Source of the DNA: Candidatus Altimarinota bacterium
GTDB lineage: Bacteria; Patescibacteriota; Gracilibacteria; UBA1369; GCA-2718715
Reading direction: 5' to 3'
Assembly (NCBI GenBank): GCA_041242255.1
Contig: JBESAV010000001.1
Location: forward strand, 96,001 to 160,000
DNA: 64,000 nucleotides
The notes beneath the pieces were generated by a model. The model saw nothing but the letters and a program-made list of their open reading frames with translations, ran no database searches and had not been told where the DNA came from. The translations under genes and the position numbers were made by a program. How positions within the stretch are numbered: the first letter of the stretch is position 1; the number at the start of each line of letters is the position of its first letter. Below are positions 118-51,752 of this stretch, piece after piece.

Positions 118-483
118 ATGTCTTCACTTAAGAAACCTCACAAACAAACCATTTTTATTGCCACAACAATCTTCCTTTTCTTCTTCTTCGCACCATTCTA
201 CCACACCCCTGGAGGAAGAGAAGATCTACTGGAAACAGGTTATTCCGAATTCACTTACCCTGATGGTACCGAAATTTCAGTTTGGGAATATCATGAAGAC
301 GCCACTTGGCCTTGTGATGGCTCATGCATTTATTACGACACAACCTGGGCACCATTCGGAGCCTTAGTCCGCAACCATAGTAAAAACGCCTTTTACGTAA
401 CCCCACTTTGGAAGATAGAGATCGAAGACACAAGCAAACTAGGCTTCATCGCCCCACCTCTAAGCACACAAAGCCCTAGGTAA
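118..483 (+). CDS. hypothetical protein with N-terminal membrane anchor
   Basis: 121-aa ORF, ATG start, hydrophobic IFIATTIFLFFFFAPF segment; no family recognised. Confidence 0.55.
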   Translation: MSSLKKPHKQTIFIATTIFLFFFFAPFYHTPGGREDLLETGYSEFTYPDGTEISVWEYHEDATWPCDGSCIYYDTTWAPFGALVRNHSKNAFYVTPLWKIEIEDTSKLGFIAPPLSTQSPR

Positions 484-585
484 TAACATTATTATTCTCA
501 AAAATCAGAGCACAACCTTAAAAATTCAAGAGTATTAGATATCGAGCTAACTAAACATAACTCTAAAGAAACTCACAAACCAAAC

Positions 586-614
586 TAGAAGCTCACCCAA
601 AGGATGAGCCTCTA
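586..614 (-). terminator. intrinsic terminator of 648..1751
   Basis: Minus-strand hairpin GAGGCUCAUCC/GGGUGAGCUUC followed by a U-rich tract. Confidence 0.6.
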
Positions 615-647
615 AATCCAGAATTCCAAATTTAAAATTAATACAAA

Positions 648-1751
648 CTATTCAACAATAAACCCCTCACTCTTATCGGTTTCAAAACCTTCTTCTTCAA
701 CATCTTCAGAATTATAAAAGAAATTTGGTCCCACCCCAGAGTATAAACCTGTAACCTCAACATCAGAAATACTAACCTGAATTCTTTCATCATATGATTC
801 ATTAAAGTAAACCTTTACCTTAAAGTTATATGCATTATTAGGTGTAAAAATAGAGTCCAATTGGTCCATATAAAACCCAAAATTAATATAACTCTGTAGA
901 CCATTCCTAGAAGAATAATCTCCCTGATCTACGTCAAAATCTCCAACCATAGTCTCAATCTTAACACCAGAAATCAAATCTTCAGGAATCTCCCTACCTG
1001 ATTCACTTACAAAGTTTACAACTAAACTATCTACGTCCATATTTTCACCATATGGAGCAAAACTAAATTCATATACAATTCCTTCTCTACCCTCAACCTC
1101 AATCAAATTTCTAGAACTACCAACTATAATATCCAAGTGCCCTTGATCATCAAGCTCTAAATTCTGGAAAGATTCAGCATCTTGCAAACATTCATTCACT
1201 TTAGTCACAGATGTAATAATTTCCTCACCAATCAAATCTACACCTTCATCATTGACCAATTCATCTCCCATATCAAACAAGACACTAAAGCTTTTATAAT
1301 CACCCTCAACCAGCTCAATATCCAAACCTTCAAAAACCAACGCATCTTCACCCTGATAATCCAACTCCCCCAATAACTCTAGGTTATCATCTCTATACAA
1401 ATATATTTTTTTAACTAGAGAAGTGGGTAGATCCTTCCCAGCGACAGCCATAGAAACAGTCAACTTTTCAACTTTTGTATCAGCTGAAGCTTCAAGAGTA
1501 AATTCATGCCCAAGTACATTCTCCTTCCCAGGTAAACCAACTTTCTTTCCAACTACTCCATACGAAACAAACACATTACACATCTCTTCTTTCATTTCTG
1601 GTGTAGTCGTTCCGAGATCGTTCTTTGAGAAATTCTCTTCCAAATTCCATATATCTCCCTGAGAAACTCTATCCTCACCACAAGCACTCATAGCCACCAA
1701 ACTTATTAAACCAGCCTTAACTACTTTTTCTCTATTAAAAATACCTTCCAT
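648..1751 (-). CDS. hypothetical acidic lipoprotein-like protein, beta-rich
   Basis: 367-aa ORF; lipobox-like AMSA-C; two similar beta-rich halves. Confidence 0.7.
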   Translation of the reverse strand: MEGIFNREKVVKAGLISLVAMSACGEDRVSQGDIWNLEENFSKNDLGTTTPEMKEEMCNVFVSYGVVGKKVGLPGKENVLGHEFTLEASADTKVEKLTVSMAVAGKDLPTSLVKKIYLYRDDNLELLGELDYQGEDALVFEGLDIELVEGDYKSFSVLFDMGDELVNDEGVDLIGEEIITSVTKVNECLQDAESFQNLELDDQGHLDIIVGSSRNLIEVEGREGIVYEFSFAPYGENMDVDSLVVNFVSESGREIPEDLISGVKIETMVGDFDVDQGDYSSRNGLQSYINFGFYMDQLDSIFTPNNAYNFKVKVYFNESYDERIQVSISDVEVTGLYSGVGPNFFYNSEDVEEEGFETDKSEGFIVE

Positions 1752-32264: not shown

Positions 32265-32717
32265 CTACCTCTGATAATACTCAAAAATGCCAGTTGCTTC
32301 CATCGATTCTTCGACATCTTTTTCCAAATCACCAGCTCCTTCTCTTCCCGAAAACTCAAAGCTTTCAGAAGCTGTTTTTTCATAATTACTAAAATAAATT
32401 TCAATCTCTTCATTTGAAAAACCATCCCAAAAGTCATTTTCAACTTTATCTTCAGATAAATCTTCTGCCACTATTTGCGGAAATCTTCTTTGAACATCAT
32501 CATTATCTGCTTCATGAAATGAAGCTGGATTTTCAGTTCCAAACTCCGCCATATATCTTTTTCTAATTTCACTTCTTTTTATTTCTCTTTGAGTTTCTAT
32601 ACATCTTTCACTAACTTCTTTTGCAAAACGAACTACTGAATTCTCCTCTAATCCTCGTTCATAGTCATCATTTGCTACTGAAGATTCCACTTCTAAAACG
32701 TCATTTAGACTATCCAT
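32265..32717 (-). CDS. hypothetical acidic protein
   Basis: ORF fills the gap; start placed at ATG MDSLND. Confidence 0.55.
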   Translation of the reverse strand: MDSLNDVLEVESSVANDDYERGLEENSVVRFAKEVSERCIETQREIKRSEIRKRYMAEFGTENPASFHEADNDDVQRRFPQIVAEDLSEDKVENDFWDGFSNEEIEIYFSNYEKTASESFEFSGREGAGDLEKDVEESMEATGIFEYYQR

Positions 32718-32793
32718 AGTACCCAAACATTAAATAACACAATCAATATATAGCAAACACTGAATGCCATAAACAAATTTCTCGGCTACACAT

Positions 32794-32822
32794 TTGCACA
32801 AATCCAATATCAGTGCTATAAT
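32794..32822 (+). promoter_or_regulatory. sigma70 promoter of LPxTG protein
   Basis: TTGCAC, 17 bp spacer, TATAAT with extended TG. Confidence 0.7.
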
Positions 32823-32843: not shown

Positions 32844-33209
32844 ATGAATACAAAAAAATTCCTAATTGCTTTGCTTATTGCGATCATTAGCATCCCAACT
32901 CTAGCAAGCGCCCAAGATCAACCACCTGGTCTTCCAGCAGTTGACTTCGGAGATGAAGAAGTTCCTGAGTTTGAAACAGATCAAACCCAAGAACCTGAAG
33001 AAGAGGAAATCGGATCCCCTCCTAGTCTAGAAATCGACACAGGAACACCAGAACCAGAACCAGACCCAACACCCGCTCCACCGGAGCCAGAGCCAGAACC
33101 TCAACCGGACCCAACACCTGCACCAGTTCTACCAGATACTGGACCAGGAGCACTACTAAGTTTGATACCAGCTCTAGGATACACAATCACAAGAAAACTA
33201 AATAAATAG
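32844..33209 (+). CDS. small secreted Pro/Glu-rich protein with LPDTG sorting-signal-like tail
   Basis: Signal peptide ASA|Q; PE/PT stalk; LPDTGP, hydrophobic stretch, RKLNK. Confidence 0.8.
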   Translation: MNTKKFLIALLIAIISIPTLASAQDQPPGLPAVDFGDEEVPEFETDQTQEPEEEEIGSPPSLEIDTGTPEPEPDPTPAPPEPEPEPQPDPTPAPVLPDTGPGALLSLIPALGYTITRKLNK

Positions 33210-33217
33210 ACCAACAC

Positions 33218-33246
33218 AAACACCTCCAACACTGGAGGTGTTTTTT
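33218..33246 (+). terminator. intrinsic terminator
   Basis: CACCTCCA/TGGAGGTG + T6. Confidence 0.8.
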
Positions 33247-33465
33247 GTATCTTAAATAAAACTCCAACCCCTCTCTCATCCAAACGCCCCAACAAACATC
33301 AATTACACAAAACCTTTATAGGACAAAGATAAGCAAGCAGAACAAGCAAAACCAAAATACATTACTTAAGTATCAAACACTAAGACCACCAGGAGTAACC
33401 ACACACAACCTCAATAAATAACTCTATAAGCTAACCAAGCAAACTCACAAATAAACTTATTAAGC

Positions 33466-33520: not shown

Positions 33521-35911
33521 CTACTGTCTCTTCTTAGTAGTTATACCATTAAGGTCGTTACCGTTCATCCAGAATACTCCATCAGCAATTGTAAGCTCAG
33601 GGTCATCAAACCCTCTGATAGGATTAAATCCAGACTTTTCGTCCTCCAGGCTGAAGAATACTCCAATTCGATTATCACTTCCAAGCACCATGTGAGCAGT
33701 TGCATAATTAGCAGTATTACCCTCACCAATAGCATCTCTTACAAACACCATGCTCGAATCTACCTCATATATCTTACCAACCTGCATAACTTCAATCACA
33801 TAACTACCAGTTGAATCATACGAAGCAACTTCCCATAGACCAGCACAAGTATCGATATCAACTAACAACTCCAATTCAGAGGCTCTTAACTCATTTGAAT
33901 CAGATGCATTTGCAACCTCTGAAGAAAGAGTTTCCGAACCACTTACCCACTCAACATCTGCTGAAGCAAGTTGCTTACTTAAACAAAAGTCTTCATTCGT
34001 CTGTACTTGAGTATCTCCATTATAACTTTGGAAAGTATCTGATTGCTCAAATCCTCCACTATAAAAATTTGGCTCGGTTTCAGCTGTTGCTGAATCGTAT
34101 TGAACAGTTGAACTTGAAGTCGTAGTGCTTTCTTCTGTCTGATTTGGCTCCACTAAACTCGCAGACTCCATTGCTGGGCTTTCAACTTCACCTGAAAAAG
34201 CTAATTTCTCCAAAGCTCTACCAAATGGCAAACTTTCAACTGGTACAGCTTGTACAAGTACTCCACATACCGCTACATCAACACAGGCTCCAAAACCACT
34301 TCCACATTCTGCTGGAAGATAAGGTGGTTGCTCTAAGTATGATTCTTCAAACGTAAGCTGTTCAACATATCTTCTAAGACTCTCCCAGATGCTCTCATAA
34401 GCAGCTCTTCTAGCATCATCCCCTTCTGAAGCAATCTCTGCCTCAACTTTTTCAATTACAGTATTCTTAGCTTGATCAAATAAGTTATCATTTACTCTAT
34501 ATTCCTGATACACCATTTCTTTAAGAGTGTTTTGTAAATGCTGAGCGTAAGCAATACTTACATCCACACATCTATTATTCCATTCATAAGTGATTCCAGC
34601 TTCAGAATTAGCAGTTAAATCACCATCACTCACCTGAGTACCTACCATAAACGTAACATCAGATGGATTAGTTCCACTTAAGTTTAAATCTTTATAAGTA
34701 AGACTTGTAGAATTCGCCACAACATCATTCCCACTCAAGCTTAAACTAAACTGATTGTTGTTTACAGCAGTCAAAGTCAAAGCATCGTTTTCAGCATCCA
34801 ATACTCCAAAACTTCTTTCCTGAGGAAGCATAACCACCTCATTCATAAATGTCTCAATTGGAGTAAGCCTTCCTTCAGACCTAGCAAGCTTAATAGCTTC
34901 ATCAACCCTACTATCAATGTTAACAGTTACATCATTGGGAGTAAGTTCTGGTGGAGTATTAACAGGAGCTGAATATTCATCTCCAACATACACCCATAGA
35001 TCTTGTTTTCCTCCATCGTAACTAGCATCAAAATCAAATATCTCTGCTGACTTAATTCCACCATTGTAGTAATCCACCAACCTATTTTCAGTTAGCGTAT
35101 AAAGCATCTGATTAGCATTTCTTGTCATAGCAGGATCAACAGTTCTATCAATTTGATTAATAACAGTTGTATCCCAAATCGCTTTAACCTCATCATATCC
35201 AGAGAAGAACCCTAACAATGCATCAGGAGCATCAATATCAACAGTCATCATATTCCAGCTGTTTGCCACAATACCTCTCTCATCTGTAGAACAATCTGCA
35301 GTTCCAGTATTGATACTATCAAAGAAGTTTTGATCAAAAGCAATCTTTGATCTTTCAGCAGCATCCCAACCATTGGCTGTACCAAAACCATTTGCATTGT
35401 TATGGTCGTCAGCAATCTTAATCACAAAATAAGTCTCACATGACCTTAACGTATCAGAAGCATCTAGTAGCTGAGCACCTAAATAATTTTTATTTGGATA
35501 AAGATTCCAACCACCTTCAGTCGGCCTATATGTACCCAGTACATATCCACTTAACCCATCATCTACCAATAAATCTTCAGCAACTCTATCCACTGTCACA
35601 GTCGCCACATTTCTAGGCGCCGTAAAAAGCAAGAAGTTACTCGGTGTCTTAGTCTGGTATTGTAGAAGGTAAGCCCCTTGTTCATTATCAGCAACATTAG
35701 CTGAAGCAAGAGATCCACTCTCAAAATCATTTTCAACTCTAAAGTACCTATCCCCTTCAGCAGTTAAAGTACCACTTAAAGCAGGATTTTCTTCAAGAAC
35801 CGGAGGACCAGCTTCAAAGCTAGTATCACTTCCCATTCCTAGATAAGCTATAACCCCAAGTACAACTACCATAGCTGAACCCAAAGCAATATACATTTGT
35901 TTTTTCGTCAT
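33521..35911 (-). CDS. large surface protein, paralog family member 1
   Basis: N-terminal TM; GPPVL...LSG, WNLYPN, WN..IW..LWVY; cadherin/Ig-like NTPP..DAEND..VSDG. Confidence 0.8.
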   Translation of the reverse strand: MTKKQMYIALGSAMVVVLGVIAYLGMGSDTSFEAGPPVLEENPALSGTLTAEGDRYFRVENDFESGSLASANVADNEQGAYLLQYQTKTPSNFLLFTAPRNVATVTVDRVAEDLLVDDGLSGYVLGTYRPTEGGWNLYPNKNYLGAQLLDASDTLRSCETYFVIKIADDHNNANGFGTANGWDAAERSKIAFDQNFFDSINTGTADCSTDERGIVANSWNMMTVDIDAPDALLGFFSGYDEVKAIWDTTVINQIDRTVDPAMTRNANQMLYTLTENRLVDYYNGGIKSAEIFDFDASYDGGKQDLWVYVGDEYSAPVNTPPELTPNDVTVNIDSRVDEAIKLARSEGRLTPIETFMNEVVMLPQERSFGVLDAENDALTLTAVNNNQFSLSLSGNDVVANSTSLTYKDLNLSGTNPSDVTFMVGTQVSDGDLTANSEAGITYEWNNRCVDVSIAYAQHLQNTLKEMVYQEYRVNDNLFDQAKNTVIEKVEAEIASEGDDARRAAYESIWESLRRYVEQLTFEESYLEQPPYLPAECGSGFGACVDVAVCGVLVQAVPVESLPFGRALEKLAFSGEVESPAMESASLVEPNQTEESTTTSSSTVQYDSATAETEPNFYSGGFEQSDTFQSYNGDTQVQTNEDFCLSKQLASADVEWVSGSETLSSEVANASDSNELRASELELLVDIDTCAGLWEVASYDSTGSYVIEVMQVGKIYEVDSSMVFVRDAIGEGNTANYATAHMVLGSDNRIGVFFSLEDEKSGFNPIRGFDDPELTIADGVFWMNGNDLNGITTKKRQ

Positions 35912-36991: not shown

Positions 36992-37657
36992 ATGAATAGA
37001 AATTACCAAATCTTCCTAATTGCCATAGTAGCCGTATTTACACTAACCAGTTGTTCAGTAGAAAGAGAAACAGTTCAAACAACAGATGCTGAAGAAAACC
37101 AAACTGAAACAAACCTAGAGTCAGCAGAATCAATCGAGCTAAACGCAGATGAAAGCTTAATCACTTGGAACGGATACAAAGCTATAATTGATACAGAACA
37201 TGAAGGAACTATCAAACTATCAGATGGAGAATTCTTAGTTGAAGACGGAGAGCTAGTTGGAGGTAACTTCACTATCGACACAACAACTGTCGACAACAAA
37301 GACCTAGATGGAGGAATGAAAGAAGGTCTTCTAAACCACCTAAACTCAGAAGAAATGCTTGATACATCAAACTTCCCTACTGGTAGCTTCGAAATCACTA
37401 AAGTTATGCCTATCCAAGAAAACGGTTTCACTCATCAAATTTCCGGAAACCTCACACTAAAAGACACAACTAAAAACATTACCTTCAAATCTAACATATC
37501 AGGCCTAGACTCTGAAGAAATCACTGCAACAGCCGACTTCAATATAGACAGACAACTCTGGAATATAGGTCACTCTGATGAACAATCAGTAGTCGACTCT
37601 CTCAAAGACAACGCACTAAAAAACGAAGTAAGAATCCGCCTAGACCTTCAATCATAA
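36992..37657 (+). CDS. YceI family lipoprotein
   Basis: Lipobox LTS-C; SxITWxG, HEGTI, LxNHL, GNLTLK, IDR. Confidence 0.88.
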   Translation: MNRNYQIFLIAIVAVFTLTSCSVERETVQTTDAEENQTETNLESAESIELNADESLITWNGYKAIIDTEHEGTIKLSDGEFLVEDGELVGGNFTIDTTTVDNKDLDGGMKEGLLNHLNSEEMLDTSNFPTGSFEITKVMPIQENGFTHQISGNLTLKDTTKNITFKSNISGLDSEEITATADFNIDRQLWNIGHSDEQSVVDSLKDNALKNEVRIRLDLQS

Positions 37658-39009: not shown

Positions 39010-41292
39010 CTACCCTTGTTCTAGAATCACAGAATCATAACTTCCTTCAGTTACAACATCTCCATTCTCGTACTCAAGAGTATCTTCCATAACCTCAATC
39101 TCAAGTCTATAACCACCATTTGGATATCCAAAGTTACTTACATCTACGCTCATTCCATCACTTGCAAGCTCAACGGTTACATTAACTTCAGCTCTTTGAT
39201 TACAAGTCTGAGTATCATATCCTAAACAACTAAATACTTTCACAGCATCAGTCAATGAAGCACCACTTCTAAGTCTAATTTCTTGTCCACTCACACCTGT
39301 TTCTAGGTTGATAACATCACTTGGATTGATTTGATCATCATCTGTATCCAAAACTAAAGCCGGACCATAAGTAGTAGCAACTACTGGACCATTAAACTGA
39401 ATATTAGAATCATTCACCCTCCACTCTTCAAGCCAGTTAGTTTCCTCAACAACTCTAACTTCATACTGTCTATTATTTTCATAAACTCGACCAATCAAAG
39501 TCAAAGTAACTTCTTTAGTTGCATCATCAAAGCTCAAGTCATACTCACTAGCATCAGTTTCTTGACCACCTTCATAAAGAGCAAAATTATCTAAAATCTC
39601 GGCTTCATCTGTTTCAGAAACCAGTCTATTTGGTTGGAATACTGCATTAGCACCATCCACTTCTTTCAACGAATAAGTAATTGAAGCAAGATCAGCTACA
39701 ACTTCAAACTGGTAACTATCACCAGTTACTGTAGTTCCATCATCATAAACAAATCCAGCATCTTCAATCTCTACTTCATAAATTCCAGCTTCAAAACCAT
39801 CTCTTTTCGAGATAACTACACTTTCATCAGCCGCAACTCTTGAGTATTGAATCTCTGAGTTATTAGTAAGCTCAGTTCTACTAGAACAATTCGCATTGTC
39901 ACACTTAAATATTCTTACAACTTGCTTATCATTCTGAAAAGTAGAGGATCTATCAAATCGACCATTATCAGATAAAAAGTCAATATCATCCCCAGGCCTA
40001 GCTTCTTCATCATCAGCACTTAGAACTAAAGCCGGACCTTCAGTAGGATCAGCAGCTTCAACCTCAAAGTCTAATTCCAATTCTTGAACTTTTTCTCTTT
40101 CAAAAGTATCAAAAATTCTCAACTGATAATCTCCAGGGCTTAGCTTATCTCCTAGATCAATCTCAATATTTTTAAGATTCAAATCAACATCAGAAGAATC
40201 AAAAGCAGTTATAAACACATAGTTAGCTCCATCCTCTCTATAAATTGCTAGATCAGAATCATTATCATCTAAATCAATCTCCGAAGCATCCATATCCAAA
40301 TCTTCAGGAGTATTATCGCTACTAGATTCAAAGAACTCTAATTCTAAAGTATCTCCAACCTGTAAAGTATCATCCTTAATCTCACCAATCAAAGCAACTC
40401 TATCTACTTTACATCTTCCTTCATAATCTACATCAACACCTTCAGCTTCAGCTTTACAAGAGTTTTGGTAAGTATTTCCATCAACTCCACATACAAAAGC
40501 ATCCACATCCGAACATGATTCAGTCACGTTTCCTTTAACATAAAACCAGTAAACTTCATCATCATCTAAATCATCAAAGAAATCCCTATCAATCGGATCA
40601 TTTAAGTCTCCAGACTCAGTTAAACGTTCAGCTTCACCAGTTACATCACCTGTCCAAAAAATAACCGCTTTACCTGATATTTCAGAAAAATCTGGTTTAG
40701 GACCATAGTTCCATCCTCTTAAGGCTTTAAAGTCCCCTACTCTATCCTCAACGTAAGTCTCATATTCGTAGGCTCTACTTGTATTAAAGATCAAAGTACC
40801 ATCAAACTCATCATCAAAAATATCTAATGTATCGATATCATAATCAGATCTAAAAATCTCATTTGGATAAACGTCCCAATCTTGCTGTTCAGCATCCCAA
40901 ATAACTGACAAAGTCAGCTGATCAGTCAAACTCGTATTTTCATTTAAAAATTCAACAATTGAATCATATTCCCCATCAAACACTATCGGAGTCCAAGTTT
41001 CTCTAGCAGAACTAAAGTTTAAATCATCTTCATCAGGTAAATCCCCCGTTCTCTCAAACTGATAGAAATTACCATCCGGTGTCAAAGCACCAGACAAACT
41101 AACCTCAGGATCTATCACCAAAGTTGGTGGAGGTCCAATCTCATCAACAGTTAACTCATCATCAGCCGACCCCATAAGTTCCTCTGTTTGAGGCTCTTCC
41201 CCAAAGTTAGAACTCACAAGTATCGCAACCACACCAAGGATCACCACCAAGGCAGCAACTCCAAGACTATACTTTTTATTTTTAATCTCCAT
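39010..41292 (-). CDS. large surface protein, paralog family member 2 (Kazal + Ig-like repeats)
   Basis: N-terminal TM; [27 protein letters not shown]; YWFY; Kazal motif; two GPALVL repeats. Confidence 0.85.
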   Translation of the reverse strand: [760 protein letters not shown]

Positions 41293-41387: not shown

Positions 41388-43868
41388 TTACAAACTTACT
41401 TGATAAACTTTTCCTCCACCATACTCAATCTTTTTACCATCATAGATATCGTAAACCGTTCTTCCAGAAGTAGCTTTATAGTCACTACTTAAGTAGAAAT
41501 CATTCCCATCATAGAAGAAATCACGATTCAAGAAGCTTCCAAAATTATGGAACCTAACATCTAACCTACCAAAGATCATCCTTTTATATCCAGGGTCATC
41601 TACTCTATCAAACACTTCATCTTTAATGACAATTGTTCCTTTATTGTTGTATGCGAAGTATCCTTCAATTTCACTAGCCGAAGTAATTACACTTGGAGCA
41701 TATTTAGGCGAACTATAATCAAGACCGTAATTATTAGTATTAATACTCATACTTCTCATTTGGTCATCAGCTGCACATATGAAATCAGCATTTTTATCAT
41801 TATTATCACCAATCATATAAGTCACTGGTGCACCATTAGAGAATCCATCATGTACCCATACTCCGTCACCCATAGAAATCACTCTAAAGTTATCACCTAC
41901 TAGATTACTGATCTCTTTTTGTTGATTCAGACCAGAATCTCTATGAATACAAGCACTACTATACCTAGTCTTTCTCATTTTCAATGCGTTGTTAGTTTCA
42001 TAAATTTGCCCAACATAACGCTTATTATTTCCACTTAGCCTGTTTAAGTGTCTTCCTACGAAATGAATAGATCCAAGAACAGGATTGTATGACCAATGCA
42101 ACAATTCTTCAAAATCATTTTCAGAACTATCAAATGTAACCTCTTTTGAAACTCCATCTGAACCCGCATAGAACAACACTCCATCTTTAGCCTGAGAAGT
42201 CCATACAAAGTAATCATCATCCTCCATTCTCACAAGATCATAATGCTGTCTACTCTGACTATTCGACTCATTATTAACTCTAATTTTAGCAGATACCATT
42301 TTGAAATTATTTCCAATTTGCTTATACAGACAATTCCCAGTTGGAGTTTCAAAAACATTATTAAATGAAGCACAAACTCCATTGGCTCTAGTAATAAGCC
42401 AAACCTCATCATCTCTACTTACCTTCATATCCACAACACTCTCTCCAGATGATAAACCACTTAGATTAGCAATTTCTTGATTAACTCTCGACTCAAATTC
42501 CACTCTATGACTTTGTGGAGAATCAATTTCACTAAATACATATCTCAAAGTCGCATAGTCCGGATGTGAGAAACTTAAATTCACTGCACTAGACTCAAGC
42601 ACTGTATTAAAACTAGCTGAAGTTGGCCTTAAAGTTTCATCTTCCAAACTTGAATCAACATAATTAATCGACAAAGTATAACCAGTTACAAAGTCACCAT
42701 TCGTATTTAACACAGTTCCTTTATAAGCTACACGTTCAGGTTCAGATGTTTGAGTTCCAATAGTAAACCTATCTTGTAACTCAATCTGCTGAGTAGGCTG
42801 TTGAATTTGATATTGAGAAAAATCAATCTGATCAAAGAAGCTTCCAGAAATTAAATCAGGATTCATAATCATAGTCCCTTCCGTCTCATTAGTTTCCTGT
42901 GTACCCACAGTTAAATTAGGCTCCATTGCTTGAAGATTATTCTGGACTGGAGAGGTTAAATTTCCTTCTATTTGAGCCGCCACTGGATTTGGCTCTGTAG
43001 CCTCAACAGGTTCTGCATCATCTGGTTCAGATTCTACAACATTTTCGTTATCAGTTTCCTCTGGCTCAACTGACTCAGCAGGTTCTGTATTGGTAGCAAC
43101 TTCTTGCTCTGGAAGTTCTCCTCCCTGAGCAACTACTGAATTTTCCGAAGCATAAATCCAATACAAATCATTATTACTCAAAGTATCAGGATTAAAATCA
43201 CTTCCAGACTCTCTATAAAACTGCTCTAAATTTTCTCCACTAAAGTCCACCGACCAAATTGACCTATACCCTAGATCAGAGAAATCAGGCTTAGCTAAAA
43301 GATTCCAAGATGCATTCACATAGTTATCATGTCCAGCAGCCTCTCTGTAATTATTACAGAAATCAACTGAAACATTTGAATTCAAAACTACCACATCACC
43401 TTTCTGAAGTTCTTTATCAAGCTCAAGCAATGGAAGATTTCCACCATCACTACTCTTAATAATTCTGTTTGGCAAAGCTTCAAAAGTTTTATCTTCACTA
43501 TTGTAGTAAACAACTAAAATTCTATTCCCTTCAGAATAGTCAGCTTGTTCAAACACTACTTCCTCCACAGTCATACCATCTTCATAAGCAGTCACAGTAT
43601 ACCAACCATTCTGCCTATCAGATTCTCCCCCAAGTCTTTCACAAGTCTCAGGACCCGCTTCAAACATATCTGCTTCCTCTTGAGAAACAATGTAAAACGG
43701 CTCCCCAGAAAGAGTAGCATTGTATCCAGTATCAATGCTTATTCCAGGAGGCGCACTAGATACATCAAAGTTTTCCTCTTCCTGAGAAACACTTAAAAAA
43801 TAAGCTGATGATCCTATTACAAGGAGCAAAACCCCTCCAATAGCACCATACAATTTCTTTTTGTTCAT
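41388..43868 (-). CDS. large surface protein, paralog family member 3
   Basis: N-terminal TM; [22 protein letters not shown] conserved domain; acidic linker; beta-rich C-terminus. Confidence 0.85.
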   Translation of the reverse strand: [826 protein letters not shown]

Positions 43869-43969: not shown

Positions 43970-46885
43970 CTATTCTCCAATTTTCATATTTGATAGAGAA
44001 AGTCGTCCATTTTCTTCTACAAAGACAAATAGTTTCTGACCAGCAGAGATAACTTGCTTAATCTCAGCATTATCCCCATAAGCTCCACCTAAACCTTTCA
44101 CAAGTCTTAACCTTCTATCAGATGAAGTTCTTTCAATTTTATAAATGTTATCAACACTTCTATTTAAAGTCATATAAGTAGTTCCAGCAAATTGCACAGG
44201 AGAAATAGGTGTACCTGCAACATCAATCTGATGCCCAACTCCTCTTTCGTCAGACCTTCTACAATCAACTACAGTCGCCTCCTCTCCCGGAGCTTCCGGA
44301 GCTTGAACACTCGAACAATCCAGTTCAAACAATCTAAAACTTCCACCTCCATCTTCTGCTCTTACTAAAGCTTCCCCAAAGTGTTCTGCACTTGAAAGCC
44401 TATCACTTCCTTGATTTGTGGATCTAACTTCCATCCATGCCGTCTGAAGATCATTCCAGTAGAATACATTTCTAGCAGAATTAATTCCAAACACATTCGA
44501 ACCATTGAATACAATTTCAGATAAGAACGATTCTCTTCCAGAAGTATTGATTCTATCATAACCTCCGTTAGGTAATTGGTGTCTATAAATCTCCCCTTGA
44601 GGACTATTGATAGACCATAGAGCTCCAGTATCTGAAGCAAAGAATCTATCTCCAGCTGTTGGGAAGTCATTCCCATTTAGACCGATGGTATCACCAAATT
44701 CAGTCATTCGTTGGATATTACATGTATAATAAGCTTTTGGATCAGCGTTTCGACCAACTGTTCCAGTTACAGCCCTATCACAATCATATCTCACATAGAG
44801 AACATCTTTCATCTCACCATTTCCTGCATCATATTTACCTTCCACAGTATCGATTCCTGATGAACCAAATTTCTCAACTTGATCAACATTACCATCTATC
44901 AGATTAGTTCCACTGTAATCATATCTATAAAATCTTCCATCCACACCTTCCCATGCAATGAGTGAATATATACGCTGATTAGTTTCACCAGCCATCACAT
45001 AGAAATCATCATCATCATTTACAAAGTTTCTAACACAGTTGTTTGTCCCTCCATCAGCAGGCACAGTACATACTGCTCTACTCAAAGGAGTCATACCTGG
45101 AAGTAATCTCCATTCTCCATCACCTTGAGAGAAGTTTTCAAAGATCTGACCATTATTATTGATCGCCCAGAAACCTCTTCCTACTTCATCATAGTGAACA
45201 CTTCTTACAGTTCCCGGAATCTCAGCAAAATCCTGATAATTATTCATACCTTCAAACGGTTGATCTGCAATCGTATCACATTGACCATTATCATTAACTG
45301 TCACATCGAACTCTCCATCTTCTACATTTGTTCCATCTTGGAAAGTAAGTCCTGAAACAGTTACTCTAATCTGCGAACAACCAGCCCATGCATCATTAAT
45401 ATCATCTCTAGGTCTAATTCTAATAGTTCTAGCATTATCAGCACTTGGCTCCCAGAAGATTACATACTCCCTATTATCTGGCCTACTTCCAAATTGCAAA
45501 CTAATTGCAGGGTCTCTCCTGTCCACATTCTTTGGAGCTAATAGAACAATATCATCTTTATAATCAATTCTGTCATCCTTAAGTTTAAGAGCTAAACCTT
45601 CACCTTGATTACAATCAATCTGGTTAGCAACTTCAGATGGGAAAAGTAATGCTCCTTCATCTCCTTGAGCAAGACTATCCTCTCCATCCACTTCACTTAC
45701 TGTAAAGTTCTCAGAGAAATTACCACATTGTAAAGTAACTTCATCACCAGCAGATATCTCACCACTAGCTACAGTACCAGTTACAACTGTACCTCTTCCT
45801 CCAACACTGAACACATCATCAATAGAGAAAACAGGTGTTCCAGTAGCAAAATCACCAAAGTCAATTCCACCAAAACCTGGATTTAAAGTAATACCACCAG
45901 TTTCACGCTGATCAATTACAACTAAATCATCATTTCCAGATCCAAATAAATCTCCAATTCTATCAATAATCGAAGGATCAACATCAATTACAGTTCCAGT
46001 ACTACCACCTTCAGTTCCTGAACCTTCTGTCCCGGTGTTACCATCAGTCTCAGATCCAGAGTTTTCTCCACCGTTTTCATTACCAGAGTTGTTTCCTTCT
46101 GTCCCTGACCCTTCAGTTCCTGAACCTTCTGTCTCAGAACCATTATCTTCCGAAGCCAATTCACCTCCATACACCCAATATAAAATATCATCTTCTAACG
46201 AACTAGGATCAAAATTAGCATCACCTTCTCTATAAAACTGATTCAAGTTCTGACCACTAAAGTCTACAGACCAAATCGATCTGTATCCTACAGCATCGAA
46301 ATCAGGCCTACTGACAAGATTCCAAGAACCTACAGTAACAACCTCATGATCTACAGCTTCAGCATAATCTTTACAGAAATCTACACTTCTATTTGAATTA
46401 ACCACAACCACCTCACCTTCTTCTAAAACAGTATTCCAATCTAGTAACGGAAGATCCGCTCCTCCAGCAGCTTTAATAATCCTATTAGGCATTGCCTCGA
46501 AACTCTTCTCAGACGGATTATAATAAACTGCAAGCATACTATCACCTTCTTCAAGATTAGCCTGCTCAAAAACGACCTCACGCACCGTCATACCATCCTG
46601 ATGTGCCACAACACTATACCAACCTTGCTGACGATCATCTTCGCCTCCAAGTTCAGCACAGGTATCAAGACTATCATCATACATATTCTCATCATCAGAG
46701 GTGACAATGTAAAACGGAGTTCCCGACAAAGTCGCATTATAACCAGAATCGATCACGATCCCAGGTGGAACACCTATTACTTCCTCTTCACCTTGGTTGT
46801 TTGAAGTTATAACTAAACCAACAAAAACCAGAGCAAGGACACCAAAGATCCCGATAAGAACCTTCTTCATCATACTTTTACTCAT
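43970..46885 (-). CDS. large surface protein, paralog family member 4 (EF-Tu domain II-like, Ig-like, propeller)
   Basis: N-terminal TM; [22 protein letters not shown]; GTEGS repeats; [16 protein letters not shown]. Confidence 0.85.
   Translation of the reverse strand: [971 protein letters not shown]
46000..46145 (-). repeat. coding low-complexity GTEGS-type repeats (linker)
   Basis: [16 protein letters not shown]...[10 protein letters not shown] in translation. Confidence 0.7.
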
Positions 46886-46979: not shown

Positions 46980-48854
46980 TTATGGTTGATCCACTTTCAG
47001 TCTATAAGCACCTACACTCGAAGCTGCTCCTTGAGCAGAACTTTCCGCAAACTCAACTTGCAGATTAATCTGACCAGATACAGCATTACTATTATATTGG
47101 ATCGAAGTTATATTCAGCACAGCTCTTCCAGAATCCGTCAGATAAACACTATACTCAACATCATTTATCTCAGATGAAAAAGTAAGCTGATCCTGCAAGA
47201 TCTGATTATAATTCTCAGCTCCGTCTGGTTTTTCCAAGTAAACAAGTAAAGAATCAACCGGACCAAATCCTACAACATCTTCACCTTCCAAAACTTCAGT
47301 CACAACTTGATCTTCAAGATAAACCTTTCTTTGTTGTGTGATCACATGACACTCATCTTTTTCTAGAGTCACATCAAAACTTTCAGATTCAACTCCGGCT
47401 TTCTCAACTCTAATGGTATATTCTCCTTCCTGCTCAGCTAGCAATTGATACACACCACCAACTCCTGCTCCATTCAACCTTTCTACTTCAACACCATCCT
47501 GAATCACAATTACCGAAGCATCAGTAATTGGATTATTAGCAATCCCTACTACCTCAAGCACCACACCATATCTCAACTCTTGAGTACAAACTACATTTCC
47601 AAGTTCATCATCAATTATCTCAACTTTGAAACTAACAGTATCCAAATTTCCAGCTGCATCAACAATTCTAAATTCTACTTCCTTTGGAAGCTCAGCCAAA
47701 TCATCATCAATCGCTTCGAGATTAAATGAAGTCAAAGTACTTTCACCATCACTAAAGTTTTTCCCAGTTGCAAATGCATTTGCACCAGCAGCTACAGATC
47801 TAGAAGCAAGTTCAGTTGCAGAAGTTAGATCAACCTGCTGCCCATCTTCATACATCTCAAATTCAAGTTCAACTTCACCATCAGCAGGTAAAGCCAATCC
47901 CACGCTATATCTCAACTCACCACCATTTTCCTCAACTTGGAAAGTCTCACCTTCGACTACATCTCTCTGACCAGCTGTATTTTCATTATCAACTTTTACA
48001 ACTATTCCTTGTTCAGTCGGATTAGGGTTTGGATTTGGGTCAGGAAGATCCCCCCCATCAGTTACTGAAGTTGCCGCACCTCCATATACCCAGTACAACT
48101 CATCTTCAGGTAAATCTTGTGGAACTACAGAGTTTGAAGGATCATCATAAGCATAAAACCTCTCAGGATCTACTCCAGAATCACCACCTTTAGCAAAAGC
48201 AACTTCCCAAATTGCTCTGTAATCAACAGCATCAAAATCAGGCTTACTAACAAGATTCCATCTCATTTCTATATTTTCATGTGAACCAACCTCTGCATAA
48301 TCAAAACAGTAATCAGCATCTCTATTTGCACTCACTGAAACAACAGTTCCTTTTTCAAGTTCTTGCTCTCTATCTAATAGAGAAACATTAGAACCGTCAG
48401 TATTTACAATTATCTTATTAGGCCAAGCTTTAAATTCTTGATCCTCAGCATCATAAATAACTGCCACCATCTTATCCCCTTCTCTTAGCTCAATTTGCTC
48501 AAAAATAATGTCTTCGACAGTCATACCATCTTCGTATGCTACTACTTGGAACCAACCATTTTGAACACTTCTTCTGTATTCAGCAGTTCCAATCTCATTA
48601 CAAGTATCTAAACCATCATCATACAAATTCTCGTCATCTTCTTCAACAATATAAAAAGGCTCTCCAGACAATGTCGCATTATAACCGGCATCAATCGTAA
48701 CCAATGGCGGTGGAGTCATACTATCAAACTCAACAACTTCAGCTGGCTCAGCTGGCTTTTGCGCGAAGTACAAACCAACTCCAAGCAATACTACAAATAT
48801 AGCAGTAACCAAACCAATTAGCTGGTTCTGGGTTAATTTCTTAGAAGATTTCAT
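46980..48854 (-). CDS. large surface protein, paralog family member 5
   Basis: N-terminal TM; [23 protein letters not shown]; Calx-beta-like IDDD..E..IIDDE; carboxypeptidase-regulatory-like CTQELR...GEYTIRVEK...CHV. Confidence 0.85.
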   Translation of the reverse strand: [624 protein letters not shown]

Positions 48855-48919: not shown

Positions 48920-49378
48920 CTACAAATAAGCAGTCATATCTATACGTTTGTCATCCACAAATACAAACTCAAAACTCGAAAACCCCTCTCTCGCTCTTAT
49001 CTTAACCGAAGGCATAGCAAATAAAGAATCCTTCAGATGATTTCCTTTATATAAAAAAGATCTAAAAACCTTTAAATTATCTCCAACCAATCTACTTTTA
49101 GTCTTCTTAATATCAAAACAATTCACAACCTCACTAAACATGTATGAACCTATCCCTTTCGCTGACTTAGTTACGTTAAACTCATGAACCACCAGATACC
49201 CCATAGGATCTATCACCCCACTTAAAACCCCTTCTTCTTCATCACCTTCGTATACTGACCTTATCAGATCACCAAATCTATCAATTACAATATCAAAATC
49301 CGAATCAATCTCCCTGTAGTCATCCATTCCTTGATACCAAAAAGTCTCACCTACAAGTTCATTAAACCTCAAATCCAT
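48920..49378 (-). CDS. hypothetical protein, possible degenerate GNAT fold
   Basis: 152-aa ORF; VxxxAKGIGS resembles GNAT motif A. Confidence 0.55.
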   Translation of the reverse strand: MDLRFNELVGETFWYQGMDDYREIDSDFDIVIDRFGDLIRSVYEGDEEEGVLSGVIDPMGYLVVHEFNVTKSAKGIGSYMFSEVVNCFDIKKTKSRLVGDNLKVFRSFLYKGNHLKDSLFAMPSVKIRAREGFSSFEFVFVDDKRIDMTAYL

Positions 49379-49427: not shown

Positions 49428-51752
49428 CTACCCCGCCGGCAAACTCATGTAATCCACTAAAAACTCAGTAATATCCCTAAACACAGGAACAGCCGTATCA
49501 CCAGCCCACTGAGAGGTTCTTGGCTTTTCAATTCTTACAAGTATCACAAACTTAGGATCTTCAGCCGGAGCATAACCTACAAAAGTCGCCATGGTAGTAC
49601 CTGGCCCTTCCAACGGAACCCCATTCTTATAAGTCTGTGCTGTACCAGTCTTACCAGCAATACTATACCCTTCAAGCTTTCCTTGTCCTGCCTCCCCCTT
49701 CTCTACAACCGATACAAGCATAGCAGTCAAAGTATTTGCAGTCTTCTTAGAAACAACCTTCCTAAGAATCTTTGGGCTTAACTCCTCCACAAAACCATCA
49801 GAATGCTCAATCTTCTTAACCAGAGTAGGCTGCATCAAAACTCCATCATTTGCCAAAGCAGCATAAGACATAACCATCTGCAATGGCGTAACAGTTAGAC
49901 CTTGCCCAAACGAAATAGTTGCCAACTCACTATCCGCCCAACCATTTGGCTTTCTCAAGTACCCATCTTTTTCATCAGCAAACTCTATCTCTAAACTCTC
50001 TCCAAAACCAAATTTCTGAATATATTCATAAAACAAAGTTCTACCAATTTTATTAGCAATCCAAGCCATACCAATATTATTTGAAGTCTCTAAAACCTGC
50101 GTCATTGTGATTTCACCATAATGCTGTCCAAAAGCATTATTAATAGTAAACTCATCTACTTTAATTGGCCCTTCATCAAGCATAGTCGTAGTAGGAGTAA
50201 CACTACCTGTATCAATTGCAGCAGCCATAGCTATAGGTTTAAAAACTGAACCAGGCTCATAAGTATCAACAATCGGTCTATTCCTAAATACTCCTGTACC
50301 TAATTTGTTTTTAAACTGCTCATAATAAAGAACATTCGCCTCAGGATCTTCAGGATCATAAACCTTATCTTCATCTTCAACAGGTATCAAAGGAAGTTCC
50401 CTGTATATATCACCCTCCTCTTCATAAAACACCTCTTCCCCAGTCGCATATTCGTATCTAGCTACAAACCCCTTTCTTGTTCCTACCAACTCTTCAATCT
50501 CATCCTCACTTCTACCTTCTAATTCTTCCTCAGTCCACACTGGAAAAACAAACTCTTCAGTCTCACCAGCCTCCCAATATTCATTTGGATCAAAAGTTGG
50601 ATAGTTAGCCATAGAAATAATCTCTCCAGTTTCAGGCTGAACCACAATCACTTGACCAGCATTAGCATCAAAAGCTTGAACATAATAAGCTAAAGTATCC
50701 TGCACGTACTTCTGAACAGATCTATCAATTGTCAGGTACACATTTGCTCCATCCACAGCAGGCTTTATCAATGTATCACTACCGACAGTCAACTGATTAC
50801 CCAAGCCATCAACCTGCGCTTGAAATAAACCAGGCTCACCTCCTAACAACTCTTCATAATTCAACTCCATTCCATACTGACCCTCCTCACGATTCATAAA
50901 TCCAATCACCTGAGAAGCCAATGCACCTTCTGGGTAATACCTGTATGTTTCTTCTTCAAAACCAATCCCCCTAAATAACTCCTTATCTTCTTTTTTCATT
51001 TTCTTCAACTCATTAGAGACCTCATGGTCAACCGCTTGCGCCAAAACCACATACTTATTTTGACCTTGAGCTAGATTCTCCAATCTCCCAACCGATATAT
51101 CTAAAACTGTAGATAGACGTTTAGCAAAAAGTTTAGGATCACTCACTCTTGGAGGAAAAAGATAAATACCCTCTTCAACACTAGCCACAACTGAAGATAA
51201 CCCCAAAGCATTAACTTCAGCCACTAAACTAGCCGACGGATCAGAGACCAACAGTATCCTCTGCCTTACTTTCTCACCAATTTTACCTAAAATCTCAGCT
51301 TCAAATTCTACCTTAAGTTCACTCAAAGGTTTAGGTTTCAAAATATCATTCAACTCTTCTTCAGATAAATCAGCCGGTAACCTTTTACGCTCCTCCTTTA
51401 GTCTTTCCTCTTCTTGTTCTAAAGCAAGCTCATGATCAAACAACAAAGGGGCAATCAACTTAGAAAGCTTCACAGGATCCTGAATCAAAGAAGGATCTGC
51501 AAAAACAGTATCCAAAGTTATATTTGTAGCGACTCTATAATCATCTCCTGAATGCATATCTTGCAAAAATATCTCACCTCTCTTCGGCTCCAACTCTAAA
51601 TACCCCTGCTGATTAGCAAGTGCTAATGCTAAATACTCATCATGCTGAAATACTTGTAGGTAAAATAGCTTCCCCACTATCATAGAAGTAAACACCAGCA
51701 AACAAAGCATTATAACCGATAGTCTTTTCCCATAGTTATATACTTCTGACAT
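49428..51752 (-). CDS. class B penicillin-binding protein (FtsI/PBP2-like)
   Basis: RGEI, RYYP, GMELxY, LTID, SVFK, SNN, KTG. Confidence 0.93.
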   Translation of the reverse strand: MSEVYNYGKRLSVIMLCLLVFTSMIVGKLFYLQVFQHDEYLALALANQQGYLELEPKRGEIFLQDMHSGDDYRVATNITLDTVFADPSLIQDPVKLSKLIAPLLFDHELALEQEEERLKEERKRLPADLSEEELNDILKPKPLSELKVEFEAEILGKIGEKVRQRILLVSDPSASLVAEVNALGLSSVVASVEEGIYLFPPRVSDPKLFAKRLSTVLDISVGRLENLAQGQNKYVVLAQAVDHEVSNELKKMKKEDKELFRGIGFEEETYRYYPEGALASQVIGFMNREEGQYGMELNYEELLGGEPGLFQAQVDGLGNQLTVGSDTLIKPAVDGANVYLTIDRSVQKYVQDTLAYYVQAFDANAGQVIVVQPETGEIISMANYPTFDPNEYWEAGETEEFVFPVWTEEELEGRSEDEIEELVGTRKGFVARYEYATGEEVFYEEEGDIYRELPLIPVEDEDKVYDPEDPEANVLYYEQFKNKLGTGVFRNRPIVDTYEPGSVFKPIAMAAAIDTGSVTPTTTMLDEGPIKVDEFTINNAFGQHYGEITMTQVLETSNNIGMAWIANKIGRTLFYEYIQKFGFGESLEIEFADEKDGYLRKPNGWADSELATISFGQGLTVTPLQMVMSYAALANDGVLMQPTLVKKIEHSDGFVEELSPKILRKVVSKKTANTLTAMLVSVVEKGEAGQGKLEGYSIAGKTGTAQTYKNGVPLEGPGTTMATFVGYAPAEDPKFVILVRIEKPRTSQWAGDTAVPVFRDITEFLVDYMSLPAG

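Follow-up and report, generated by a model that had tools for sequence, protein, structure and literature searches.

The window examined here is a 64,000-nucleotide stretch of DNA from a Candidatus Altimarinota bacterium (assembly GCA_041242255.1, contig JBESAV010000001.1, positions 96,001 to 160,000 of the forward strand), and our subject is a gene within it that encodes a small predicted surface protein of 121 residues, S121, together with the array of large genes nearby. S121 and its large neighbours carry the same short peptide, built around a pair of prolines (the PP peptide); in S121 it runs from I56 to G67, IGSPPSLEIDTG, and is coded by positions 33009-33044 (+) within the open reading frame (ORF) 32844-33209 (+). 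A preliminary description of this DNA, made from the letters, had claimed the peptide at this place and quoted related ones from the neighbouring genes, and every quoted peptide was found. Bacteria of the candidate phyla radiation (CPR) are uncultivated, tiny, and thought to be attached to other cells, and how they build their surfaces is largely unknown. The host genome is a single contig of 1.0 Mb with 36% G+C, and the protein of one relative is labelled Candidatus Peregrinibacteria by its source. Sequencing runs listed as containing this DNA are DNA runs from marine metagenomes, with no RNA run among them. The findings described here point to a lineage-specific surface system that links two protein families, one small and one large, through the PP peptide.

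The features of the S121 gene are as follows, one to a line.

32793..32822 (+), promoter-like site, TTTGCA, 18 nt, then TG-n-TATAAT, about 22 nt 5' of the start codon; 10/12 match with an extended -10.
32844..33209 (+), small surface-protein gene S121, stop codon included; orthologues at 57-63% identity; synteny kept in the metagenome relative L049.
32844..32912 (+), putative signal peptide, residues 1-23, ending in ASA before Q; a sequence reading with a family-wide AxA site and a presumed cleavage point.
32919..32969 (+), PP peptide 1, QPPGLPAVDFGDEEVPE, residues 26-42, at the mature N-terminus; invariant in 7/7 orthologues bar one E/D position.
33009..33044 (+), PP peptide 2, IGSPPSLEIDTG, residues 56-67; G57, P59, P60, S61, L62, I64 and G67 invariant in seven orthologues.
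33045..33128 (+), stalk rich in Pro, Glu, Asp and Thr, residues 68-95; length and sequence differ among orthologues; free of predicted secondary structure.
33129..33206 (+), cell-wall sorting signal: LPDTG (96-100), a 16-residue hydrophobic stretch PGALLSLIPALGYTIT and basic RKLNK.
33218..33253 (+), intrinsic terminator-like hairpin of 11 pairs (33218-33243), then a T run.

The signal sequence of S121, read by eye, is MNTKKFLIALLIAIISIPTLASA followed by QD, in which a basic n-region leads into a hydrophobic core and then an AxA site. The mature protein would then present QPPGLPAVDFGDEEVPE, an acidic spacer, EEEEIGSPPSLEIDTG, the stalk and the LPDTG tail, in that order. PP peptide 1 fits the first motif found across the family, APPxLxxPFGD, and its core, QPPGLPAVDFG, sits three residues past the putative cleavage site. 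The proline-rich stalk, the LPDTGP motif, the hydrophobic stretch and the basic tail are all present as first described, and so is the lack of a globular domain—an AlphaFold2 (AF2) model made with seven orthologues reached a predicted local distance difference test score (pLDDT) of 64 and a predicted template-modelling score (pTM) of 0.16, with two terminal helices only, the first at residues 3-15, and no secondary structure predicted for residues 16-101. Mature S121 contains zero lysines. Searches with S121 returned no Pfam family at E<=0.01, and its NCBIfam matches are of the low-complexity kind and far under their cut-offs. Taken together, S121 is predicted to be secreted, disordered, and covalently attached to peptidoglycan at LPDTG by the single sortase of this genome. 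Because a promoter-like site precedes the gene and the 11-pair hairpin with its T run follows it, we read S121 as its own transcription unit. The consensus promoter of the preliminary description holds as far as the 10/12 match and the extended -10 go; promoter-type sites of this kind are not above shuffle level in the window (2 found vs 3.1 expected), so the site is weak evidence.

One sortase gene was found in the genome, as the preliminary description had proposed to look for (486551-487552 of the contig, G000:C1, locus L017; 333 aa with an N-terminal extension of about 190 residues). Its PF04203 match, at G000:C1:487121-487549, scores 94-96 bits; the protein passes the general sortase model, TIGR01076, and fits no curated sortase class, the best being class C at 80 bits vs a cut-off of 160. 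The gene lies about 358 kb from S121, unlinked to genes of either family. Just four ORFs genome-wide terminate in a sorting signal of the [DE]TGP type, and these are the candidate substrates; none of the five large proteins described below has a C-terminal sorting signal. A sortase is encoded in 197 of the 205 genomes of the order, and being nearly universal it does not mark this system. Nothing beyond [DE]TGP is common to the four candidate substrates, and T-G-P is all that is invariant across the small family, so the recognition motif may differ from the classical LPXTG.

S121 belongs to a family that extends well beyond its genome. Profile A1, built from seven small proteins and searched in the 205 genomes of the order, finds matches in 52 of them, among which are 6/9 genomes of taxonomic family f1, 29/56 of f17, 7/16 of f15 and 3/13 of f9; most matches outside these four come from long ORFs and seem to reflect the tail or low-complexity sequence. 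The collected set comprises 44 distinct sequences of 91-193 aa. Of the 44, 41 have a [DEQNST]TG[PS] tail that continues into a hydrophobic stretch and ends in basic residues, and PPx[LIVMF] occurs at least once in 36, at least twice in 19 and at least three times in 13. S121 has the layout typical of the A1 family (about 105-195 aa): a signal peptide, APPxLxxPFG(D), copies of [DE]xPP[STA]L, a low-complexity linker, and [DEQ]TGP with a transmembrane segment and a basic tail. Across the family the first copy lies a few residues past the AxA site and reads APPxLxxPFG(D), and later copies read [DE]xPP[STA]L, a motif present one to five times—five in a row, as TPPSLGG repeats, in L041.

Conservation within the family falls on the peptides. 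Among seven S121 orthologues, QPPGLPAVDFGDE.VPE and G.PPSL.I..G are invariant and the spacers vary in both length and sequence; a third copy, PP-h-I-x-h-D-P (h, hydrophobic), is present in 6/7 and missing from S121. The N-terminal copy, which had been taken for the weaker one, turns out to be the best conserved, with QPPGLPAVDFGDE.VPE unchanged in all seven. The sorting motif is kept less strictly: in seven aligned members only T-G-P is invariant (T99, G100 and P101 in S121), and the general form across the family is [DEQ]TGP[GEA]. Judged by these sequences, and setting aside its signals for export and anchoring, the sole conserved content of the small family is the PP peptides. Compared by eye across genomes, their copy number shows no relation to the number of large paralogues.

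The peptide recurs in the large genes of the window. EEEVIGVPPGIVIDSG is carried by the 971-aa ORF 43970-46885 (-), DEIGPPPTLVID by the 760-aa ORF 39010-41292 (-) and SAPPGISIDTG by the 826-aa ORF 41388-43868 (-). Two further carriers had not been listed in the preliminary description: the 624-aa ORF 46980-48854, with MTPPPLVTIDAG, and the 796-aa ORF 33521-35911 adjoining S121, with the degenerate copy AGPPVLEEN. An extension after PP, h-x-I-D-x-G, is specific to this genus and common to S121 and three of the paralogues.

Chance does not easily account for this recurrence. The pattern PP.[ILV].[ILV]D has six matches in 3635 ORFs of at least 40 aa, five of which are S121 and large proteins of the cluster; the sixth is a 43-aa ORF inside the span of a penicillin-binding protein (PBP) gene. 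Among 930 non-overlapping genes the strict motif has five matches, all within 16 kb, and residue shuffles gave a mean of 1.2, with 3 of 500 reaching at least five. The motif is thus infrequent in unrelated proteins of this genome, which was one of the checks proposed at the outset. The 305 proteins that have an N-terminal hydrophobic segment give 12 juxtamembrane matches to PPx[LIVMF], and the six proteins of the cluster account for 7 of these. A looser form of the motif showed no enrichment genome-wide (15 observed vs 23.9 +/- 4.9 expected); since the strict matches are clustered and the loose pattern is not enriched, the signal of the motif lies in its position and clustering, not in composition.

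The position of the motif is constant as well. In every carrier class the first motif lies 2-25 residues from an N-terminal membrane element. Small proteins have a signal peptide as this element, large proteins a transmembrane helix, and lipoproteins of the YceI type a lipobox cysteine. The latter are carriers in the sister genus g3, in which a YceI-type lipoprotein beside fpg bears a PP peptide 8-13 residues past the lipobox cysteine (QQPPSLPEMP or QIPPEMPAIE; L047 2239-3060 (-) and L048 44-937 (+)). The orthologous YceI lipoprotein of the window, 36992-37657 (+), has no PP peptide, and because the g3 proteins carry the peptide and this one does not, the motif is portable among envelope proteins that are unrelated. 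PP is often followed by Ser or Thr, and also often by A, G, E or K. A separate idea, that the IDTG ending PP peptide 2, which resembles the DTG of LPDTG, might be a second sortase site, was dropped; orthologues read IDPG or INTG there, and the corresponding residues of other genera are unrelated.

In the large proteins the peptide is part of an N-terminal module, which in the five neighbours of the window lies as follows.

35063..35911 (-), module of the 796-aa protein (33521-35911): transmembrane helix, AGPPVLEEN at 35786-35809, domain; A3 E 1.9e-51; convergent neighbour of S121, kept in L049.
40537..41292 (-), module of the 760-aa protein (39010-41292): IGPPPTLVID at 41110-41139; A3 E 3.5e-48.
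43149..43868 (-), module of the 826-aa protein (41388-43868): SAPPGISIDTG at 43725-43757; A3 E 9e-68.
46166..46885 (-), module of the 971-aa protein (43970-46885): EEEVIGVPPGIVIDSG at 46742-46789; modelled with AF2.
48075..48854 (-), module of the 624-aa protein (46980-48854): TPPPLVTIDAG at 48684-48716; A3 E 6e-73.

The five proteins align over about 240 residues with the products of genes that adjoin small-family genes in other genera, and the order of the module is a transmembrane helix, an acidic linker, PPxL, and a domain of about 200 residues with two near-invariant tryptophans. Profile A3 was built from 14 such modules and searched against representatives of clusters at 50% identity: it finds 353 of them at E<=1e-3, or 274 at 1e-10. 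In the best 150 of the 353 the module stands at or near the N-terminus of proteins whose total lengths range from 253 to 1536 aa, so that the large family, as read from its alignments, is a constant head on variable bodies. PPx[LIVMF] is found within the first 130 residues of 144 of these 150; the other six comprise four with FPxL or IPEL and two that lack the N-terminal part of the module and are ambiguous. The most conserved columns among the same 150 are the W of GW (99%), P (99%), P (96%), G (90%), G (87%), the second W (86%) and the P of Y-P (85%). A3 does not match S121 in its own locus—the peptide is all that S121 shares with the large family.

Modelling and fold searches give the module a confident shape and no named relative. 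An AF2 model of residues 1-240 of the 971-aa protein (45-row alignment) has a pLDDT of 86 and a pTM of 0.80, with a predicted helix at 3-26, a strand at 43-45 right past PP (pLDDT 72-79), and then a confident alpha/beta domain. Foldseek found nothing for this model in the PDB at E<=1e-3, the best Z from VIA-align, run on 48,161 chains, was 2.1, the ESM Atlas returned only unnamed clusters at 0.88-0.91, and the N-terminal modules have no match in Pfam or NCBIfam. The modelled module is therefore best described as a fold for which these searches found no solved relative, and fold searches do not prove novelty.

Outside the module, the large proteins show further, fainter likenesses. Residues 352-396 of the 971-aa protein match the domain-2 beta-barrel of EF-Tu/SelB at an E of about 1e-6, far under the family cut-offs, and this stretch of an extracellular protein is probably a small barrel of similar sequence. 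Sub-threshold matches to Kazal_2 (residues 255-294 of 39010-41292 (-)) and to CarboxypepD_reg (residues 435-518 of 46980-48854 (-)), both in variable C-terminal parts, would suit ectodomains that are modular and polymorphic. Immediately upstream of the four-gene array of large paralogues, and on its strand, stand a gene for a PBP2-type transpeptidase, 49428-51752 (-), and a 152-aa ORF, 48920-49378 (-), whose family is not known; this placement makes a transcriptional tie to wall synthesis possible. In other genera, too, large-family genes stand in tandem, three to six paralogues together, and the small gene lies either within such an array or at its edge (L037 on G173:C66, L024 on G052:C8, G144:C1 and G182:C54).

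The two families are linked in their distribution and in their gene order. A3 matches occur in 60 of the 205 genomes: 3/9 in f1 plus this genome, 47/56 in f17, 5/13 in f9 and 4/16 in f15, and none in the 110 genomes of the other fifteen families of the order. A sample of 301 genomes of the class, about 260 of them from other orders, gave one match outside the order, which is weak (E 1.9e-6) and covers the helix-plus-motif part only. Small and large families are thus concentrated in the same four taxonomic families, f1, f9, f15 and f17. Both are found together in 33 genomes, and in 26 of these the small and large genes lie within 5 kb of each other (hand-tabulated from profile matches); in the remaining seven they are on different contigs, mostly in assemblies of at least 70 contigs. 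Among the fetched loci, 12 genomes have a large-family gene within the 1.5-kb flank of the small gene, and pairs on the same strand, small gene then large gene with gaps of 27-60 nt, occur in several genera (L023, L024, L030, L032, L040 and L041). Within f1 the small gene stays between fpg and a gene for an RNase T-like exonuclease, and in L049 (62% identity) the convergent neighbour of the 796-aa type is also kept. The functional link that the preliminary description had proposed between the small LPDTG protein and the large ones is supported by co-occurrence, which it had proposed to check, and by co-localisation. The particular roles suggested there for S121, as a base that donates its peptide to capture the large proteins, a nucleator, a decoy or a chain terminator, are conjectural.

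What links the two families is the PP peptide, which ranks with the best-conserved elements of each. The reading we favour, held tentatively and at a little less than even confidence, is that S121, anchored in the wall, serves as a multivalent ligand and binds where the large proteins accommodate their own PP peptide. This peptide would be a short linear motif that docks on the N-terminal domain as a polyproline II (PPII) or beta segment, with its prolines against the conserved tryptophans and with the residues after PP adding a strand. S121 would offer several copies of this peptide on the end of a flexible, wall-fixed stalk, and its peptide would engage the membrane-anchored large proteins in one of two ways, by exchanging with the copy that they carry themselves or by taking the site which that copy uses on a neighbour. 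The outcome would be an array of large proteins tied or ordered relative to the wall. A wider claim can be attached to this reading: that [DE]xPP[ST]L and the tryptophan-bearing domain form a new peptide-domain recognition pair for surface assembly in the CPR branch, in which a sortase-anchored, peptide-only scaffold with 2-5 sites organises or tethers polymorphic membrane-anchored proteins. We give this wider claim a fair chance, though one well short of even.

Several observations weigh against S121 as a ligand of the large proteins. Co-occurrence at the level of genomes is largely phylogenetic—in f17, the large family is present in 27/29 genomes with the small gene vs 20/27 without it—and adjacency is for this reason the stronger argument. 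Three genomes of genus g3 (G023, G048 and G066) have the small protein and no A3 match, and in the window itself S121 is a separate convergent unit, not an operon partner of the large genes. Each large protein has a copy of the peptide fused to its domain, with which a ligand acting in trans must therefore compete; this fused copy, the predicted N-terminal transmembrane anchor of the large proteins and the YceI carriers all fit simple capture poorly. Carriers that lack the domain, namely the YceI lipoproteins and proteins of L036 and L024, hint at a reader other than the domain, and the proposed contact between PP and tryptophan is a guess drawn from conservation. A complex prediction for S121 residues 24-72 (A5) and the segment 28-240 of the 971-aa protein (A4), in the stricter design that keeps the domain's own peptide, gave a median score of 0.14, the mark being 0.32; this counts neither for nor against binding.

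The alternative that survives best, though we judge it unlikely, is that [DE]xPP[STA]L is a shared tag for processing, modification or targeting, recognised by a third factor of the envelope that acts on the outer side of the membrane, with S121 as one more substrate; candidates for this factor would be an ectodomain-shedding protease, an LCP-type glycosyl- or phospho-transferase, a prolyl-modifying enzyme or a foldase. The constant juxtamembrane place of the first motif in every carrier class would suit such a tag, as would the presence of the motif on proteins without the N-terminal domain (membrane proteins of L036 and L024, unmatched by A3, bear it too) and the common Ser or Thr after PP. 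That residue is also frequently A, G, E or K, however, and so is not an obligatory acceptor, and a one-time tag poorly explains tandem arrays of up to five copies. Two LCP-family proteins are encoded in the genome, and the small sortase-anchored protein GspA of Actinomyces oris is glycosylated by an LCP enzyme according to PMC6381275; yet the LCP genes here are unlinked to these loci and not specific to the system, and none of the neighbours—fpg, YceI, MgtE, RNase T and PBP2 genes lie near S121 or the array—is a candidate enzyme. The PP pair is moreover conserved together with the two tryptophans, which a structural contact fits better.

We see only a slim chance that the PP peptide is instead an adhesive for a host or partner cell, with S121 as a minimal adhesin. 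Peribacteria encode many large extracellular proteins proposed to serve attachment, according to PMC4736985, the S121 peptides stand at the far end of a wall-anchored stalk, and multivalency suits adhesion; in the large proteins, however, the peptide lies 10-25 residues from the membrane anchor and beneath an ectodomain of 600-970 aa, a poor place for cell contact, and the variable C-terminal regions are the likelier adhesive parts. Slimmer still is the chance that the likeness is an evolutionary leftover, the small proteins being remnants or offshoots of the 5' end of a large gene fused to a sorting tail. The first motif of the small family, PPxhxxxFG, does resemble the first dozen residues of the module, PPxL...aromatic-x-G, and the shared h-x-I-D-x-G extension of this genus could be read in the same way. 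A leftover would not be expected across four taxonomic families with motifs invariant while spacers drift, copies amplified up to five, and gene order with the large family maintained—from these features we infer selection on the peptide itself. Last, S121 as base or terminator of a sortase-built, pilus-like polymer that includes the large proteins, akin to the chain terminator once suggested for it, is close to refuted: the best sortase class is indeed the pilus-polymerising class C, and a partly conserved F/W-x-x-Y-P segment of the module may recall a pilin motif, but the class score is far under its cut-off, the single sortase is unlinked to these genes, C-terminal sorting signals are absent from the large proteins, mature S121 lacks lysine, and no lysine is conserved after Y-P.

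Among known systems, the anchoring principle is the familiar LPXTG/sortase one. Like the LPXTG proteins of Gram-positive bacteria that are substrates of housekeeping sortases, S121 has an N-terminal signal peptide, an LPXTG motif with hydrophobic and basic tail, and a sortase in its genome; unlike them, it has no folded passenger domain, only T-G-P is invariant across its family, and the sortase falls outside the curated classes. GspA is like S121 a small LPXTG protein with little more than a stalk, and it depends on the envelope enzyme LcpA acting before anchoring (PMC6381275). Nothing indicates that S121 is glycosylated, and its likeness to GspA is one of description. GspA is not known to share a motif with neighbouring large proteins.

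Other parallels are conceptual. Like other multivalent adaptors anchored in the wall, the anchoring scaffoldins of cellulosomes, built on cohesin and dockerin, display a binding unit several times over for variable proteins that have one recognition module; this likeness is one of concept. In S121, by contrast, the unit is a peptide of 6-12 residues and not a folded cohesin, the partners are membrane-anchored, and Pfam and NCBIfam give no homology. Donor-strand complementation in chaperone-usher pili also sets a short N-terminal peptide beside a beta-rich domain, and the preliminary description had likewise thought of a peptide-only protein that supplies its peptide to others; any groove of an incomplete fold in the module would be hypothetical, and the two systems have different types of envelope and routes of secretion. 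As for a large-family member that clearly lacks its own peptide, none was found: the two N-terminally incomplete ones are ambiguous, and the one apparent case, in L039, was cut by the edge of its locus. Proline-recognition modules read proline peptides by means of aromatic cradles. SH3, WW, EVH1 and GYF modules, with their PxxP or PPxY ligands, are the natural comparison for an invariant Pro-Pro conserved with two near-invariant tryptophans; unlike these, the module model has no structural match in the PDB, and its contact between PP and tryptophan is putative.

Measured against curated libraries and the searched literature, the peptide-only small family, the N-terminal module family and the motif that links them are new. 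Literature searches on sortases of Peregrinibacteria, LPXTG proteins of Patescibacteria and proline-rich tandem motifs of surface proteins turned up no account of the motif or of either family, although the family tables of PMC6744442 might list them. The consulted parts of papers on Peribacteria and CPR bacteria (PMC4736985 and PMC6744442) note a sortase and many large extracellular proteins, and describe neither the motif nor the two families. If the PP peptide is a docking motif, it would offer a concrete handle on envelope organisation in CPR bacteria and may yield a compact peptide-domain pair for use as a tool; if it is instead a tag for processing or modification, a new kind of sorting signal for the envelope would be defined. 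A true recognition pair would be a functional parallel to cohesin-dockerin or donor-strand systems, but one made of a linear motif and a fold for which no solved relative was found.

Beside S121 itself, the space that separates it from the exonuclease gene contains an acidic 153-aa ORF, 32265-32726 (-), for which Pfam gives no match, and in L049 the same position is occupied by a 107-aa ORF, 424-747 (-).

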